5,842 bases of DNA from a virus (lineage: Duplodnaviria > Heunggongvirae > Uroviricota > Caudoviricetes). The position numbers and the translations under genes are program-made. The stretch spans positions 1 to 5,842 of IMG/VR virus record IMGVR_UViG_3300012155_000058, one strand, 5' to 3'. This document shows positions 1 to 5,842 of this stretch, piece after piece (position 1 is the stretch's first letter; every line of letters begins with the position of its first letter). The notes under the pieces are model-generated. The model did not search any database and was not told the DNA's origin. It worked only from the letters and a program-made list of their open reading frames with translations.

Positions 1-56
1 TGCCCTATGGCTGGCAGTGAGACATCGCCACTAAATTGAATCATTTTTTGTTGCAT
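1..56 (-). CDS. 5' end of an unidentified gene leaving the window at the left edge (first ~18 codons, MQQKMIQFSGDVSLPAIG...)
   Basis: Minus-strand ATG at 56-54 preceded by GGAGG (complement of 62-66) with 5-nt spacer; frame stays open to position 1. Too short to assess coding properties or product. Confidence 0.3.
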   Translation of the reverse strand, partial: MQQKMIQFSGDVSLPAIG

Positions 57-95
57 TGTTTCCTCCCAGGTATTGCACCACCGTAATGCAAAACA

Positions 96-114
96 GGGCG
101 TGACGCCCTTTTTA
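96..114. terminator. GC hairpin GGGCG-tga-CGCCC followed by TTTTTA; intrinsic-terminator-like element of uncertain assignment
   Basis: Perfect 5-bp GC stem 96-100/104-108, 3-nt loop, T-run 109-113 on plus strand; A-rich run immediately upstream makes it weakly bidirectional. It lies in a divergent intergenic region, so what it terminates is unclear. Confidence 0.3.
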
Positions 115-263
115 TTGGTGCGCAACATATTGATTTTAAATACCTTTATTTTTTAGTGTCCACAATTTGCCCCATTCTAAGCACGACTGGAATCAACTAT
201 TTTTATCTAAAAAAAATGGCTATGCCCGCCTCTACGTCTAATAACTTAATCCAACCTAATGAT

Positions 264-272
264 TGTTATAAT
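264..272 (+). promoter_or_regulatory. Candidate sigma70 extended -10 element (TGtTATAAT) for the DUF4177/YidD-like operon
   Basis: TGTTATAAT at 264-272 matches the TGnTATAAT extended -10 consensus; sits about 70 nt upstream of the ATG at 342 in an AT-rich leader. No good -35 hexamer, consistent with an extended -10 promoter. Prediction by eye only. Confidence 0.3.
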
Positions 273-341
273 TATTTATTGAAATATCATTCCCCTAGTT
301 TACTATTTAAACTCGTTTAATTACAAAAAGGAGTTTAATAC

Positions 342-578
342 ATGTACACCTATAAGATGATACAAGTACCGCCCAATATCTCAGTTAAAGCACGTGACAA
401 CAAAGCAGGAATAGCAGCAGCTTACCTTCAAGACGTGGTAAACGAACAAGCCGCCAACGGCTGGGAGTTTCAGCGGATAGACACTATTGGGATTGAAGAA
501 AAGCCAGGGTGTTTCGGTGGCAGCAAGACAAACTTTACTCAGTACTACGTTATCACTTTTAGAAAAGAAGTGGATTAA
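342..578 (+). CDS. Small DUF4177-like protein (78 aa), function unknown
   Basis: ATG at 342 with AAGGAG at 327-332 (9-nt spacer). Protein begins MYTYKMIQVP, has a central NGWEF and ends YYVITFRKE, which matches my recollection of the DUF4177 pattern. Stop TAA 576-578 overlaps the next start. Confidence 0.7.
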   Translation: MYTYKMIQVPPNISVKARDNKAGIAAAYLQDVVNEQAANGWEFQRIDTIGIEEKPGCFGGSKTNFTQYYVITFRKEVD

Positions 579-793
579 TGTTAAAAGTCTTGAGTATTCG
601 CCTTGTGTTGTTCTACCGAGCACATGCGCCAATGAATATTCGTAACAGATGTCGTCACACCCCATCTTGTTCAAAATACACACTGATTGCATTAAAGCGT
701 TTTGGATTCGTAAAGGGGTGGAAACTAGGTTTAAAGCGGATTTATCGTTGCCGTCCACCGAATGGCGGTATTGACTACCCGCCACACAAGTAA
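578..793 (+). CDS. yidD: YidD-family protein (putative membrane protein insertion efficiency factor paralogue, 71 aa)
   Basis: Clear similarity to E. coli YidD recalled from memory: CRHTPSCSKYTLIALKRFGFVKGWKLGLKRIYRCRPPNGGIDYPP versus [46 protein letters not shown]. Start ATG 578-580 overlaps upstream stop (TAATG). Symbol denotes family membership, not orthology to the rnpA-linked yidD. Confidence 0.85.
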   Translation: MLKVLSIRLVLFYRAHAPMNIRNRCRHTPSCSKYTLIALKRFGFVKGWKLGLKRIYRCRPPNGGIDYPPHK

Positions 794-800
794 TGCCTAA

Positions 801-827
801 GGCCGCCATAGTCGACGGCCTTTCTCA
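801..827 (+). terminator. Possible intrinsic terminator of the DUF4177/YidD-like operon
   Basis: AGGCCG (801-806) / CGGCCT (817-822) 6-bp stem with 10-nt loop, 8 nt after the TAA at 791-793; trailing T-tract is weak (TTCTC). Confidence 0.3.
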
Positions 828-971
828 AGACCAAAGCGTAAATTTCAGTTTCATATTTAACTAACTATATGTTTTTATTGTAATTTTTAAAATCTCTCAA
901 GCATTCCCTCACCCTCAAGCCTTCACGTAAAATAATTTTTTCTTTTATTTTCAATGTAATAAAAACAGGCC

Positions 972-997
972 GATCACATTCGTGATCTTTCTGTTTT
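972..997 (+). terminator. Hairpin GATCAC-attc-GTGATC followed by TTTCTGTTTT; weak terminator-like element
   Basis: 6-bp perfect stem 972-977/982-987 and T-rich tail 988-997. Stem is short and not GC-rich, so low confidence. Confidence 0.2.
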
Positions 998-1001
998 CAA
1001 T

Positions 1002-1105
1002 TAACTGAAAAAGCACGTAATTTTTTCAGTTCCGCAGATCCTTTTTAGATCCTTGCTGCGCGGGCTTTTGCGGCCCTTTATTGCAATATCCAGAACTGAA
1101 AAAAC
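1002..1105. repeat. Three copies of a 10-12 bp motif AACTGAAAAA(A): direct at 1002-1011 and 1094-1105, inverted at 1021-1032
   Basis: TTTTTTCAGTTC (1021-1032) is the exact reverse complement of GAACTGAAAAAA (1094-1105), flanking about 61 bp. AACTGAAAAA at 1002-1011 also pairs with 1022-1031 around a 9-nt loop. Read directly from the sequence. Confidence 0.6.
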
Positions 1106-1257
1106 TTTAACCACGCACAAGCGGCGGGCGTGCGGGTGAGCGCGGTTTTCGTCCCGCTGGCGTTCCGGTGTTCAGATTTTGACCGCGCGCCGTGTATCGA
1201 GCACCGCCAGACCTGCAGGACCGCCATAAATGACCGTGTTTGCCGGAATGAGGACGT

Positions 1258-1279
1258 AAAAAAGCCCGCGCAGGCGGGC
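1258..1279 (-). terminator. Rho-independent terminator of the minus-strand operon
   Basis: On the minus strand: GCCCGC-ctgc-GCGGGC (perfect 6-bp GC stem, 4-nt loop; plus coordinates 1264-1279) followed by TTTTTT (complement of 1258-1263), starting 12 nt downstream of the gene E stop at 1292-1294. Confidence 0.6.
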
Positions 1280-1291
1280 AATGAGAAGGGA

Positions 1292-2938
1292 TTAGCGTTC
1301 TATGATGGGGGATAGCTGCGCATGTAGCGTTGCAGCATTGACAGATTCAGCCGTAAACAATGCGGCGGTTGTAGGTGGGCTACTGGGGCCGCACTGGCAG
1401 TTATGGATGTGCGCAGCGTCAGCCGCTGCTAGCCGTTGAACAACCATCATCAGGTTATCCAACAGCACAAAAATATTTATTGCGTCCGTGCCGGTCCAAC
1501 TCTTTCCGGCTTCAAAATGCTGCAATTCTTTAGCCACGCTACGCCGCAGCTTGCCGACGACTTCAACCAACTGCCCGCCGACAGCGTGCCGGTGATCTCC
1601 TCCTGCTCCGGTGTCAATATCACCTGCAGTCATCTGCTCAATAGCGCCCAGGGTATGCAGGATATGCGACCCGCCAACCTGTAACACATCATCACCCGTT
1701 ACGCTGGCGCGACGCTCCGCGACGTCCGTCTGTTCTTCATCCACCGTCAACTTTCGCACCCGCGCAACTTCGGTCAGTGCCTGATCGGTTTCGCGGCTGA
1801 CATCGCCGCGACTGTTTGTCTTATGCAGAACGCCCGCGCGCGACTGCTGCACCTGCTCACCCGCAGCAACAGCAGGCAGCGTCAACCCCTGCGCCATTAC
1901 CTGGCGGATGTGTGGGCGGTCCGGGCGTGCCTCACTGAATCCCAGTTCGACCAGTGTTCCCGGCGCTGGGTACTGCATCAAGCCGCTATCGCTTCCGCCA
2001 AACCCAACCGGCAACGGCACAGCCTGATAAACAGGGACCGTTTGATCTGGTTTCCCGTCTTCATCAAGTAACTGAACATTGACGGCAAAACGCGGACGGA
2101 ATGGATCTGATATGTCGCTATGGCCGGTCGTGTCGCTGATAGCCTCAACGCGGCCAATTTTTGGCAGGTGTAAACCTGCGGCCAGTTCCGGAAACTCCTT
2201 TTCAGCCTGGCGGCGGAATTGCGATTTTTGCGCCTCGCGGCCTTTGCTGTCTGTTACTGCCCATTTGACTGACATCTGGTCATCAGTCAGATCGATACGC
2301 TTAACCCGCTGGCCGTTAACGACAGCGCCAGGCCGCAGTGACGGCACGCACACGATCCGCATAGTGTCGCCGCCAGTCTGCTGATCAGAAAATCCGGGCG
2401 GTATCTCAACGGGCAATGACGGCCATCGGGATTCCTGCCAACTACCAACAAACACAACACCTTCGGGCAACTGCTGCCAGATATAATCCGGGATAGAAAA
2501 AGCGCGCCCCAGGTTGTTTAGCAACTGATAGCCGCTGCCTGAATGGGTAAAGTTAGGGATCGGCGTATCGGTGTATTTCTGCCCGTCTGGCAGCGCAAAC
2601 GCCAGCCCGCACTGTTCAGTAACCCAGTTACAGACATCCCGTAATGTTGGGTGCTGTATTGAACAGGGCATAGGGCGCGCCAGTATTCCCGTTAATTCAC
2701 GCACCAGGATACGCTGCCAGCCCTTTTCCGCCTGCTGACTACGCTCAACAATACCAGTGAACCAGCGCAGCATTTTTCCGGAATACCCCAGATCCAGCGC
2801 GACCATTTTTCCCTGTAAGTTTTCATCACCGGGGACCGTGACAAAACCCAACCCAGCGCCGGACAACTCCAGCGCCAGATGTACATTAACCGGCGTTACC
2901 GTCTGCGAACCGATATAAAAACGGCTTGTTATCTTCAT
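1292..2938 (-). CDS. Gene E: hypothetical protein, 548 aa, no recognisable domain; last gene of the operon
   Basis: Long ORF; ATG 2938-2936 overlaps gene D stop (ATGA); followed by the terminator at 1258-1279. No Walker A, no reverse-transcriptase YxDD, no obvious transmembrane segments. Confidence 0.8.
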   Translation of the reverse strand: MKITSRFYIGSQTVTPVNVHLALELSGAGLGFVTVPGDENLQGKMVALDLGYSGKMLRWFTGIVERSQQAEKGWQRILVRELTGILARPMPCSIQHPTLRDVCNWVTEQCGLAFALPDGQKYTDTPIPNFTHSGSGYQLLNNLGRAFSIPDYIWQQLPEGVVFVGSWQESRWPSLPVEIPPGFSDQQTGGDTMRIVCVPSLRPGAVVNGQRVKRIDLTDDQMSVKWAVTDSKGREAQKSQFRRQAEKEFPELAAGLHLPKIGRVEAISDTTGHSDISDPFRPRFAVNVQLLDEDGKPDQTVPVYQAVPLPVGFGGSDSGLMQYPAPGTLVELGFSEARPDRPHIRQVMAQGLTLPAVAAGEQVQQSRAGVLHKTNSRGDVSRETDQALTEVARVRKLTVDEEQTDVAERRASVTGDDVLQVGGSHILHTLGAIEQMTAGDIDTGAGGDHRHAVGGQLVEVVGKLRRSVAKELQHFEAGKSWTGTDAINIFVLLDNLMMVVQRLAAADAAHIHNCQCGPSSPPTTAALFTAESVNAATLHAQLSPIIER

Positions 2939-3570
2939 TTGTCTTTGTCCGTTTTGACAGCTGATCCGGCCGTACCGTTTGACGTCGTATCCGCTTTTGA
3001 TTCAGACGGCGACGGGGCCAGCCAATCATCAATTTTTTTCCAGAATTTATCTGATGACGACATTTCAGTGTCTGGCGGTGTATTTTCCCCAGAAGATGCA
3101 CCCGGCGTCGTAATACCTGGCGTTGTCTGCGAAACAACCCCGCCCAGTTTTGAAAATACGTTGGCCTCTTTTTTCTCCGGCACACTGCTGTACTCCCGCA
3201 GAGTGAACGACACGTTCCACGCCCGCAGTGAATCCGATTCCGGCGCGCTCAGACGCCCGGTGAATGTCGCCTGGCGCATGTTGATCGCCGTGGCGGTGAG
3301 ATTAGAAACGCGGTAAACCGTCTGCTTTCCGCCCTCGTCCACCCCTTCCGCCAGTTCAAAAATACGCGTAAGAAATTCAACATTACGAAACGGGATCACG
3401 CCGCTGACGTTTAATTCCTTTGCTTTTATCCCGCCCTCACTTTTCTGCGTTCCCGACGTCTGGCCAGACTGATCTTTGTCTTTGAACGGCAAAACAGCCT
3501 CCACTTTCAGATTCAGCATTTTTACCGTTTCGCCGTTCAGCGTTAAAATTACTGGGTGTCTCGTGCTCAT
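2935..3570 (-). CDS. Gene D: hypothetical protein, 211 aa, with a low-complexity S/T/P/G/K/D-rich C-terminal tail
   Basis: ATG 3570-3568 overlaps gene C stop (ATGA) and is preceded by GAAGGG about 6 nt upstream. An N-terminal region of about 130 aa of ordinary composition is followed by a C-terminal third of compositionally biased sequence. Confidence 0.75.
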   Translation of the reverse strand: MSTRHPVILTLNGETVKMLNLKVEAVLPFKDKDQSGQTSGTQKSEGGIKAKELNVSGVIPFRNVEFLTRIFELAEGVDEGGKQTVYRVSNLTATAINMRQATFTGRLSAPESDSLRAWNVSFTLREYSSVPEKKEANVFSKLGGVVSQTTPGITTPGASSGENTPPDTEMSSSDKFWKKIDDWLAPSPSESKADTTSNGTAGSAVKTDKDK

Positions 3571-4436
3571 ATGCAGCCCTTCAAAAACGACAGATCCGCG
3601 CCAGTGAACAGCACGACAGCAGTAAAAATAAAAGAATGGCCGGGCGGGCTACTGGATTCCAGCGCAGACGCCAGTGACGCACCGCCACCGCTTCCCTTCC
3701 AGGACCAGACCTGCGCGGCGGTTTCGTTCAGCTTGTCAAAGTCACCAGCCAGATCAGAAACAGCCTTTTCACGCAGCTTTACCAGTTCCGCCAATGTATC
3801 GACCGGCGCGCGGGTTTTATGTGCGGCCAGCATCGCCATTTCTGACAACAGCAGGCGGCGCGATTCACGGTGATTTTTTTCGATCAGGTCGCCAGACTCC
3901 GGCCACGCCGGATAGGTCAGCGCGCCGGGGCGTTGCATTTTCTGGGATTCCTTGCCAGCGTGAGCGCGGGCGGTGTTCAGTGCCTGCGTAAATCCGGGGG
4001 CGGGCAAGGTGTCACAGACTTTTGTCAGCTTGCTAATGAAGTCCCCAATCTGACCAGCGCAAACAAGTAAACAAACGGCGTCACCGCCTGCGCCCATTCT
4101 CAGATCTGCACCATCGCGCAATTTTTCGGCCAGCCGTTTGACGGCGTTCGGCGGGCTAAGATAAGTGCCGCTTTCTTCCTCCTTACCCGCGCCAAACGTC
4201 CAGTTATGAACGGCGATTTGCTGCCCGTTCGTTGTCAGTTTATCCAGTTCGACGCGCAGATCGGCAACCTGATCCGCCTGCCCCGCCAATTCTGGCTGCG
4301 GCCACTGCGCCCGCGATTCCAGCGCGCGCAATGCGTTAATGCCAGGGGATGACAGCGACGACAACGCACCGTTTAACGTGTCATGCGGCGTTTTCACTTC
4401 ATCCGGCAGTTTTAACTGTCCATTACTCCACGCCAT
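3567..4436 (-). CDS. Gene C: hypothetical protein, ~289 aa, helix-rich composition with a short hydrophobic C-terminal segment
   Basis: ORF in track is 3567-4529, but the best start is ATG 4436-4434 (MAWSNGQLKLPDEV...) preceded by GGGAGCGGGG. This gives a 25-nt overlap with gene B. An alternative ATG 18 nt upstream cannot be excluded. C-terminus FIFTAVVLFTGA is hydrophobic. Confidence 0.7.
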   Translation of the reverse strand: MAWSNGQLKLPDEVKTPHDTLNGALSSLSSPGINALRALESRAQWPQPELAGQADQVADLRVELDKLTTNGQQIAVHNWTFGAGKEEESGTYLSPPNAVKRLAEKLRDGADLRMGAGGDAVCLLVCAGQIGDFISKLTKVCDTLPAPGFTQALNTARAHAGKESQKMQRPGALTYPAWPESGDLIEKNHRESRRLLLSEMAMLAAHKTRAPVDTLAELVKLREKAVSDLAGDFDKLNETAAQVWSWKGSGGGASLASALESSSPPGHSFIFTAVVLFTGADLSFLKGCI

Positions 4437-4900
4437 GAATAACCCCGCTCCCATTCGCTGGAAACCAGCGCGTGTAACTGGCCGGGCGAATAACGCCAGG
4501 CATCCCGTAACTGCATAAATTCGGCACAAAACTCGCTACAAAACCACTTTTCAGGATTCCCACGGCAAAACAGCAAAAAGCCGATAACCCCGGCGATGTC
4601 GTATTTTTTCCCCGCGTACAGGCGGTAAAAACTGGCGATTTCCTGCGGGCTGGCGCTGATTTCGATCAAGTCCCATTTGTCAGAGGGTAAAGGCATTGTT
4701 TTAGCCCTGACCCCGCCATCACGGAACGATGACGAATAGCAGGTAAAATCCGTGCCGACGTCGTAGCACTGCGGCCCCACGGCGATTTCACAATGTGAAT
4801 ACGGACTGCGGGTAACAAGGCGTGTCACCCAGTCCGCCAGGCTGGCTAGTCCGTTGTGATCGCTGCGGCCACGATAAAACGCAATAAACACCGCGTTCAT
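4412..4900 (-). CDS. Gene B: putative permuted papain-like (NlpC/P60 superfamily, YaeF/YiiX C92-like) hydrolase, ~162 aa
   Basis: ATG 4900-4898 overlaps gene A stop (ATGA); a GTG at 4909 is an alternative start. Motif order is a histidine motif PYSHCEIAV followed by a C-terminal cysteine motif KWFCSEFCAEF, resembling the YSH and YCSE motifs of the circularly permuted YaeF/YiiX family. Assignment is by eye and needs profile confirmation. Confidence 0.7.
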   Translation of the reverse strand: MNAVFIAFYRGRSDHNGLASLADWVTRLVTRSPYSHCEIAVGPQCYDVGTDFTCYSSSFRDGGVRAKTMPLPSDKWDLIEISASPQEIASFYRLYAGKKYDIAGVIGFLLFCRGNPEKWFCSEFCAEFMQLRDAWRYSPGQLHALVSSEWERGYSWRGVMDS

Positions 4901-5499
4901 GGTTGCCACCCCAGGGACCAGTCGTAAGCCTCAACGGCGGCAATATCGCCCAGGGCATCCACTGCCGCAATATGCGCCTGCGCAACGGCAAACAAACGCA
5001 TATCGTGTTCAATGGTCACAAACTCAAACTGTGCGGCGATTGCGTTGGTCAGTTCAATCAGCCCGTTATTTTTGGTTTGCCACATCAGACCGGGCGGAAC
5101 CGCGCCCGCCTGTCCCATTTTTGCCAGCGTCATCTGCTGAATGCGGCTGTTAGCGTCGCTATGGAAGCGATTCCCGTCGATCACGATGTAATCGGCGGTG
5201 ACGGCGTCCCTATGTGCTTTTATATCCTGTTCAACCTGCGCTTTAATCTGCTTCAGCGCGGCGGCAAATGCTGCCGCGTCATAAATCCATTTATCACCGT
5301 CCAGGCGATAATATTCGCCCGGTGGCGGCGTTGTTACGAGCTTTCCAGCAGCGGGATTTACCCAGCAATCACGATCGCGGTAACGCCACTGCACATCCGT
5401 TAATTGCATGACCGTTTCAGGCAGAACAATGTCAAACTGATCGGTGTCCAGCCATGCTAGGACCTTCATTGATTCAGAATCAAAATATACATATTTCAT
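4897..5499 (-). CDS. Gene A: hypothetical protein, 200 aa; possibly a tail-fibre assembly or chaperone-like accessory protein by position
   Basis: ATG 5499-5497 lies 3 nt after the stop of the glycine-rich gene, with GGTGA upstream. Position immediately after a fibre-like gene suggests a chaperone role. It lacks the NPEG...RRAD...GKWMFKDG signature of P2/Mu/lambda-type Tfa proteins, so the functional call is weak. Confidence 0.75.
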   Translation of the reverse strand: MKYVYFDSESMKVLAWLDTDQFDIVLPETVMQLTDVQWRYRDRDCWVNPAAGKLVTTPPPGEYYRLDGDKWIYDAAAFAAALKQIKAQVEQDIKAHRDAVTADYIVIDGNRFHSDANSRIQQMTLAKMGQAGAVPPGLMWQTKNNGLIELTNAIAAQFEFVTIEHDMRLFAVAQAHIAAVDALGDIAAVEAYDWSLGWQP

Positions 5500-5502
5500 T
5501 GA

Positions 5503-5842
5503 TCACCATGACAATTTAACAAAACCCGGCGACCCATTGCCGCCCGGGAAACAGTTCGCACCAGAAGTCCCATAAGCACCAGCCGACCCGCCCGCACCGT
5601 ATCCGGTGCCATTGTGACTACCACCGATAACCCCGCAACCACCATCGCCATATACTGACGACGCTCCATTATTGCCCGCAGTGGCTTTTGTAGTACCAGT
5701 ACCGCCAGTAGTACCACCATAACCACCAGAACCACCGGGTGACGACACTCCCGAAAATGAAGACGCGCCGCCAGCAGTCCCCGAATTACCCTTGGTCATA
5801 TTGCCTGCTGATGACGTGACTACGGTTCCCCCTACCCCCCCA
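5503..5842 (-). CDS. 3' end of a gene encoding a glycine-rich C-terminal domain (tail-fibre or adhesin tip-like); 5' end lies beyond the window
   Basis: Reading frame is open from the window edge (5842) to the TGA at 5505-5503. Translation is Gly/Ser/Thr-rich with interspersed aromatics (GGSGGYGGTTGGTG, GTGYGAGGSAGAYG) and ends GFVKLSW. The internal Met at 5799 has only a weak SD, so a longer protein is more likely. Confidence 0.55.
   Translation of the reverse strand, partial: GGVGGTVVTSSAGNMTKGNSGTAGGASSFSGVSSPGGSGGYGGTTGGTGTTKATAGNNGASSVYGDGGCGVIGGSHNGTGYGAGGSAGAYGTSGANCFPGGNGSPGFVKLSW

Follow-up and report, generated by a model that had tools for sequence, protein, structure and literature searches.

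A predicted DUF4376-type tail fibre chaperone gene at the right end of an HP1-like prophage of Escherichia coli

Gene A, its locus and its family

The DNA analysed here, called the window throughout, is the whole stretch of 5,842 nucleotides (nt) at positions 1 to 5,842 of IMG/VR virus record IMGVR_UViG_3300012155_000058. The gene in question, A, is a minus-strand open reading frame (ORF) at 4897–5499 that encodes a protein of 200 residues, predicted to be a tail fibre chaperone of the DUF4376 type. When compared with the chromosome of Escherichia coli strain 40EC, the window showed 99.9% identity. Among 5426 complete E. coli genomes, most of it was present in no more than 8, and the others matched the yeaE end alone. 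The window forms the right end of a chromosomal HP1-like prophage of E. coli and adjoins yeaE. As annotated, the neighbourhood is that of a P2-family prophage with HP1-like tail genes, with genes for a DUF2586 sheath, a tape measure, DUF2590, baseplate J, a 'phage tail protein' and a tail-collar fibre. The fibre gene is followed by five small genes, then by an AT-rich stretch and then by yeaE. The order on the minus strand is fibre, A, B, C, D and E, all in the same orientation. In the phage collection, megablast with the whole window found no match, and tblastn with A found three phage records only.

The part of the fibre gene that lies in the window is its 3' end (5503–5842, minus strand), made up of its last 112 codons, which encode the distal, glycine-rich receptor-binding tip. 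The full gene, for a protein of 669 residues, extends past the window (L001:25503-27512), and its product has Pfam matches to Phage_tail_fib at the N-terminus and to Gly_rich_2 at residues 498–661; a PDB search with the tip gave matches to glycine linkers only. The TGA stop codon of the fibre gene (5505–5503) is followed by TCA and then by the ATG of A at 5499, a gap of 3 nt. A Shine-Dalgarno-like GGTGA lies directly upstream of this ATG. At its other end A stops with the TGA at 4899–4897, which overlaps the start codon of B as ATGA. The A protein is acidic, with an isoelectric point of 4.72 and 27 D+E residues versus 17 K+R. An earlier, sequence-only reading of the window had described an acidic 200-residue protein beginning 3 nt after the fibre gene and coupled by ATGA to the gene downstream, and both descriptions hold.

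The start codon of A is called differently in different genomes. The Prokaryotic Genome Annotation Pipeline (PGAP) gives proteins of 190, 216 or 200 residues, with the 190-residue call in the 40EC-type genome of the window, and the 216-residue call would overlap the fibre gene by 44 nt; the inconsistent calls are found at window 5469–5499, at L004:10896-11546 and at L005:10598-11200. In favour of the 200-residue start are the full-length PHROG match, which begins at residue 2, and the many homologues of 198–204 residues that open with MKY or MTRY.

Against Pfam family DUF4376 (PF14301), for which the curated gathering cut-off is 25 bits, A scored 47.2 bits (E 3.4e-12), the match running over residues 84–189 of A and positions 1–102 of the 106 in the profile. 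A also matched phrog_2837 and phrog_1807, both of the tail category, at E ~1e-39. BLASTP aligned A with gp27 of Alteromonas phage V22 (E 4e-7, 21% identity) over 120 residues reaching the C-terminus, and V22 gp27 itself scored 76 bits on PF14301 and gave E 3.7e-13 on a profile built from A's family. The DUF4376 family comprised 759 cluster representatives at E<=1e-3, those listed being mostly of 150–250 residues with a C-terminal domain that matched up to the last residues, and PF14301 was matched by each of the 64 family members sampled. In every homologous locus examined, the gene lies directly downstream of a fibre gene and is co-oriented with it.

Previous work has given this family a function. 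V22 gp27 is required for functional receptor-binding gp26 and is absent from the final complex (PMC7289586). Likewise, co-expression of the DUF4376 protein encoded downstream of the H-fibre gene in a Campylobacter CJIE1-like prophage is required for the function of the receptor-binding protein (RBP) (PMC7882524). Models of gp27 and of phage A5 gp9 have a helical body plus a beta-hairpin and have been compared to intramolecular chaperone domains, and a transient fibre cap has been proposed (PMC10579305). Judged by its sequence, A is an ordinary new member of this already described, non-classical family of fibre chaperones. That A may belong to a different chaperone family had been suggested in the sequence-only reading; the suggestion proved right, the family being one already known.

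The same reading had found no classical Tfa signature in A, and in profile searches covering both families A matched DUF4376 and not Tfa. The Pfam scan gave no match at E<=1 to PF02413 (classical Tfa, Caudo_TAP) nor to any other Pfam family besides DUF4376, and hence none to Peptidase_S74. As positive controls, λ Tfa, Mu U and P2 G scored 127–148 bits on PF02413, and none of the three matched DUF4376 at E<=1. A published statement that Mu U contains DUF4376 (PMC7882524) was not borne out, in that the Pfam scan gave PF02413 only for Mu U. The NPEG, RRAD and GKWMFKDG motifs, which are found in Mu U and P2 G, are missing from A save for a degenerate form of the last: the YRLDGDKWIYD of A was aligned to RRADDSGKWMFKD, with DGDKWIYD opposite SGKWMFKD and with the W invariant in an alignment of 8 sequences. 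A weak match to phrog_105 'tail fiber assembly' (A residues 54–98, E 0.0023) covers this degenerate-motif region. We considered whether DUF4376 might be merely a divergent Tfa C-terminal domain, and rejected the idea because hhalign showed no relationship between the 64-member DUF4376 alignment and classical Tfa proteins (probability 0.3%, E 0.21). PDB sequence searches with A and with the 64-member family profile gave nothing meaningful.

The degenerate motif belongs to a short hinge, aromatic-x-x-(D/N)-G-x-x-W, at A residues 62–73 (window 5281–5316), just before the helical C-terminal part. The same hinge motif was seen in λ Tfa, Mu U, P2 G, the orf32 product of Haemophilus phage HP1 and a post-fibre protein at L019:4271-4999, which otherwise belong to unrelated families. 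Shared ancestry may have left it as a remnant, or it may represent a structural element that these proteins have in common.

Two-part architecture, exchange with the fibre tip and a chaperone model

The architecture of A is modular. Residues 1–73 (5281–5499, minus strand) make up a variable, beta-rich N-terminal module, which is the proposed fibre-tip recognition part. Residues 84–189 (4933–5250, minus strand) correspond to the conserved DUF4376 domain, which combines helices with two beta-hairpins and is the proposed oligomerisation or assembly module. The DUF4376 domain is 60–75% identical among proteins with four different N-terminal modules, and close relatives that are 60–66% identical to A over its residues 55–200 have other N-termini. 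In one group of relatives a λ-Tfa-like N-terminus of ~115 residues, which passes the PF02413 cut-off, is fused to DUF4376; a second group has a short Tfa-like N-terminus, and in a third the N-terminus is different again. These fusions of Tfa-like N-termini to DUF4376 show the domain taking, in nature, the place held by the helical half in a classical Tfa. The relatives were found in P2-like or Mu-like tail modules, their genes always directly after the fibre gene, and one occupies the position of Mu U, upstream of com/mom.

The type of fibre tip varies with the N-terminal module of the protein encoded next to it. A-type N-termini go with glycine-rich tips, λ-Tfa-type N-termini with Collar/His-repeat tips and the short type with Gp53-like_C tips. 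When the N-terminal parts of A-family proteins and the last 180 residues of their fibres were clustered over 38 loci, the table of N-terminal class against tip class was nearly block-diagonal, with the A type next to a glycine-rich tip in 18/18 loci and the λ-Tfa type, at 14+2 loci, next to two tip classes ending ...NYIVR(L/A)A; the loci are those of related prophages, so the counts do not represent independent events. The same pattern of N-terminal module and RBP tip has been reported independently for Campylobacter phage F341. One IMG/VR contig (L059:359-4875) carries two tandem pairs of fibre and DUF4376 chaperone genes, which differ in their tips and in their N-terminal modules. The fibre shaft (L001:25503-27512) contains 25-residue tandem repeats (LTYSDVNAVPTTRKVNNKALSADIT), the copy number of which varies among three E. 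coli prophages, and in one prophage there is an extra insert of ~95 residues within the repeat region.

A pair of near-identical prophages, 40EC and LZSFT34, differ at just this place. The proteins J, I, B, C, D and E are 98–99.5% identical between the two, and the fibre N-terminus is 96.7% identical. The corresponding values are 55% for the fibre tip, 72% for the N-terminal part of A and 81% for its C-terminal part, so that the N-terminal module is the most divergent part of A. In the DNA, the divergent block extends from window ~4850, at the A/B junction, to ~6700, inside the fibre gene, and identity declines gradually from the 3' end of A toward its 5' end. From this block of divergence, the unit of exchange is the fibre tip together with A, and one of its recombination boundaries seems to lie at the conserved end of DUF4376. 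At the corresponding slot HP1 has the 200-residue orf32, which is unrelated to A and lies beside a different fibre tip, and orf33–35 are conserved. A and the fibre tip probably form a mobile host-range cassette.

Given the family match, the fibre-linked position and the exchange of A with the tip, and given that genes C, D and E are unrelated to it (see below), A is read as a fibre accessory of a known non-classical chaperone family. In particular, A is likely a DUF4376-type intermolecular tail-fibre chaperone that is made with the fibre and forms a mobile cassette with the tip, apart from C–E.

A structure of A predicted by AlphaFold2 from a 19-sequence alignment, with a predicted local distance difference test (pLDDT) score of 84.7, has a beta N-terminal domain and a helical body with hairpins. 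The predicted strands are at residues 2–6, 12–18, 30–32, 46–48, 53–55, 64–67 and 70–73, the helices at 75–101, 116–130 and 152–191, and the hairpins at 105–112 and 139–149. This plan agrees in outline with the published descriptions of gp27 and gp9 and with the domain plan of gp25 of cyanophage Pam3. Fold searches with A did not retrieve Pam3 gp25, and the structural resemblance to S74-type domains was not reproduced.

On the two-domain model known from other fibre chaperones and taken over here by analogy, A would be produced together with the fibre from one late transcript. Its N-terminal module (~residues 1–75) would bind the fibre at its glycine-rich distal end, and its DUF4376 module (~residues 75–200) would oligomerise, aligning three fibre chains in register, such that folding of the fibre trimer would begin at the C-terminal end. 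A would then probably depart from the mature fibre, or just cap it transiently.

Gene B and other readings of the locus

Gene B (4412–4900, minus strand) encodes a 162-residue Cys-His protein, probably of the permuted papain-like kind (NlpC/P60 superfamily). B had no Pfam or NCBIfam family match, and among 37 B relatives one gave a weak C92 match; NCBIfam had no model for any of A–E. The relatives of B share an invariant His36 and an invariant Cys121, the latter in an FCSE motif, so that the His precedes the Cys. BLASTP related B to V22 gp28 (E 3e-8), which is annotated as a 'permuted papain-like amidase' and itself matched Peptidase_C92 weakly (E 9e-4, below the cut-off). A B profile matched PDB entry 3kw0 at E 0.024 with the His and Cys motifs both aligned, and 3kw0 is a permuted NlpC/P60 enzyme (PMC3142127). 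Foldseek with a confident model of B (pLDDT 88.5) found no match. The PHROGs label for B, 'enoyl-CoA hydratase/carnithine racemase-like', looks like a mis-annotation. Proteins of the B family have ~150–170 residues, are without Pfam coverage and are widespread; loci include window 4412–4900 (minus strand), L021:9960-10370, L066:2619-3101, L067:4085-4570 and L017:5001-5465.

A B-family gene comes after a DUF4376 gene, usually with overlap, in 42 of 44 IMG/VR loci, which came from a narrower-alignment search and are mostly close relatives. B follows DUF4376 in three P2/Mu-like enterobacterial contexts whatever the N-terminal class or fibre type, in one Neisseria and one Pasteurellaceae prophage and in V22, and also in 3/3 distant contexts that were sampled, two of which are an Mtd_N-type phage and an SU10-like podovirus. 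The pairing has exceptions. In phage A5 the chaperone is present without a gp28 homologue; in the L059 contig with tandem pairs the first pair lacks B, which is found after the second only; and at L019 the post-fibre gene ahead of B does not encode a DUF4376 protein. In the searchable literature we found no discussion of the DUF4376–B pairing, which is the less ordinary aspect of the locus and more worth attention than A itself.

It may be, though we put it forward only tentatively and would not bet on it, that a DUF4376 chaperone and B form a conserved two-gene module for fibre maturation across very different tailed phages, with B acting enzymatically on the fibre–chaperone complex. One can speculate that B has a role in fibre maturation, in removal of a cap or in hydrolysis of lipids or peptides; within such a module it might release or degrade a chaperone cap, or carry out acyl or peptide hydrolysis or transfer with the fibre tip or envelope lipid as its target. 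If so, fibre assembly or host recognition would include a catalytic step, carried out by B, that is so far undescribed.

The pairing in 42 of 44 loci, usually with stop/start overlap, and its recurrence in the other contexts listed above would also fit a reading in which A acts chiefly with B, with DUF4376 recruiting B, regulating it or being its substrate, and in which the link to the fibre is secondary. We think this reading unlikely. In E. coli the V22 proteins gp26 and gp27 yield a functional RBP when gp28 is absent, and the gene arrangements in A5, L059 and L019 show that chaperone and B can occur apart. Recombination, moreover, parts A and B without apparent cost, since in the two prophages compared above B is 98% identical but A only 72–81%.

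A different place for A would be the virion itself, where it would remain at the tip as a distal cap or an adhesin and join in receptor binding, as do Mu Tfa and the gp38 proteins of T2 and S16. TfaMu is known from the literature to stay bound to its own fibre, the transient cap proposed for DUF4376 chaperones goes some way in this direction, and the N-terminal half of A diverges along with the tip, as an exposed host-range determinant would. The labels of phrog_1807 and phrog_2837, 'tail fiber protein' and 'tail protein', also point to a structural part, but these are annotations and not tests. In size-exclusion chromatography, however, V22 gp27 comes fully apart from the mature RBP, which can still bind to cells. 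The fibre itself, furthermore, bears a hypervariable glycine-rich tip, which is the receptor-binding element in Pam3 gp24 and S16 gp38. A lasting place for A in the virion is thus distinctly improbable in our view.

The genes beyond B belong to the core of the tail operon. Gene C (3567–4436, minus strand; phrog_1677) is an orthologue of HP1 orf33 (33% identity, E 6e-35). Gene D (2935–3570, minus strand) encodes a baseplate complex protein of the HP1 ORF34 family (Pfam PF25759, E 2.9e-53). Gene E (1292–2938, minus strand) is an orthologue of HP1 orf35, with 40% identity over the full length (E 1e-148), and its product matched phrog_2258 'baseplate protein' at E 5e-206. C, D and E, then, are operon context, core HP1-type baseplate genes that lie outside the fibre cassette and are unrelated to A. 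The genes overlap by 25 nt at B/C and by 4 nt at both C/D and D/E. The sole convincing terminator on the minus strand lies 3' of E, at 1279–1264, where a strong terminator-like hairpin (GCCCGCCTGCGCGGGC) followed by six T residues lies 13 nt past the E stop codon and marks the end of the late operon. Because the junctions are tight from the fibre gene to E and the only terminator comes after E, translational coupling is a trait of the late operon as a whole and is uninformative about A specifically.

That A should be the first gene of a five-gene A–E system unrelated to the fibre, as the overlapping or nearly overlapping A-to-E junctions and the lack of an internal terminator might suggest, is barely credible and already contradicted, since C–E are orthologues of HP1 orf33–35, which in HP1 follow the unrelated orf32, A homologues are found in P2-like and Mu-like tail modules without any C–E genes, A is exchanged with the fibre tip while B–E remain ~99% identical, and the fibre/A junction is equally tight. 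The sequence-only proposal that A might head a coupled system therefore fails for C–E, which are HP1 orthologues and ~99% constant, and survives only to the extent that B is a habitual partner of A.

Two further observations concern the end of the operon and what lies beyond it. HP1 orf35 (L002:10563-12164) weakly matched the OB domain Phage_base_V (E 0.0033, short of the cut-off), which hints that HP1-like tails have their spike or hub encoded by the last gene of the operon, behind the fibre gene (window 1292–2938). Between the end of the prophage and yeaE is an AT-rich (39% GC) cargo segment at window 342–793 (plus strand), with genes for a DUF4177 protein and for a paralogue, carried by the phage, of the membrane protein insertion efficiency factor YidD. 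The DUF4177 and YidD-paralogue pair was also seen in the related prophage of strain N1420, which has a different integration site, beside yecA.

Meaning and closest known systems

By itself the finding about A is of low to moderate interest. Its use is in annotation: a 'DUF4376 domain-containing' or 'hypothetical' protein encoded after the fibre gene of an enterobacterial prophage can be read as a fibre chaperone, and the N-terminal module of a DUF4376 chaperone predicts the type of fibre tip. The matching chaperone must travel with the tip, which makes this knowledge useful in retargeting phages or pyocins by fibre transplantation. The natural hybrids, in which DUF4376 stands in place of the Tfa helical half, form a functional bridge between two families of chaperones. 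As a putative Cys-His enzyme that accompanies fibre chaperones in myoviruses, podoviruses and Mtd-type phages, the product of the recurring B gene offers a lead that can be tested at low cost.

A counterpart by position is orf32 of HP1, which fills the slot between orf31, the fibre gene, and orf33, and whose product has 200 residues and the hinge motif. It is not an orthologue of A, however: the best BLASTP alignment had E 0.55 over 16 residues, orf32 has no DUF4376 domain, and HP1 has no B-like gene. Peptidase_S74 domains, as in T5 pb1 and the K1F endosialidase, are relevant through published models that liken DUF4376 chaperones to their helical 'body plus tentacle'. A differs from them in being a separate ORF with its own start codon, with no S74 match at E<=1 and no sign of autoproteolysis.

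Pam3 gp25 is the chaperone for a glycine-rich-tipped fibre, gp24, with which it has been seen in complex by cryo-electron microscopy. Its N-terminal beta domain grips the tip and its C-terminal helical domain trimerises, and the predicted secondary structure of A follows the same plan, but PDB searches detected no sequence similarity between gp25 and A. The classical chaperones λ Tfa, Mu U (TfaMu, PDB 5YVQ) and P2 G are like A in position, size and acidic character, and in having a variable N-terminal part for fibre binding (putative in A), a conserved helical C-terminal part and the common hinge motif. They are unlike it in that A's C-terminal domain is about twice as long, with no PF02413 in A and no DUF4376 in Tfa.

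Within the DUF4376 family, the protein encoded next to the H-fibre gene in the CJIE1-like prophages of Campylobacter has the same domain and the same position after a P2 H-like fibre gene, though the host differs. F341_034 of the Fletchervirus F341 has a hybrid make-up of N- and C-terminal modules that follows the C-terminus of the RBP, as in A's family. Both are likened to A here by domain and published description.

Close counterparts too are V22 gp27 and A5 gp9, proteins of ~195–200 residues with a C-terminal DUF4376 domain, encoded directly downstream of the fibre or RBP gene. V22 is a lytic marine myovirus, whereas A, with a function that is predicted, lies in a temperate HP1-like prophage of E. 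coli. With 21% identity between them, gp27 and A have different N-terminal modules, and the tip served by gp27 is a knob domain, unlike the glycine-rich tip of A's fibre. The likeness nevertheless extends from the outline of the predicted structure, a helical body with beta-hairpins in the models of A as in those of gp27, to the order of the genes, in that gp27 is followed by gp28, the homologue of B.

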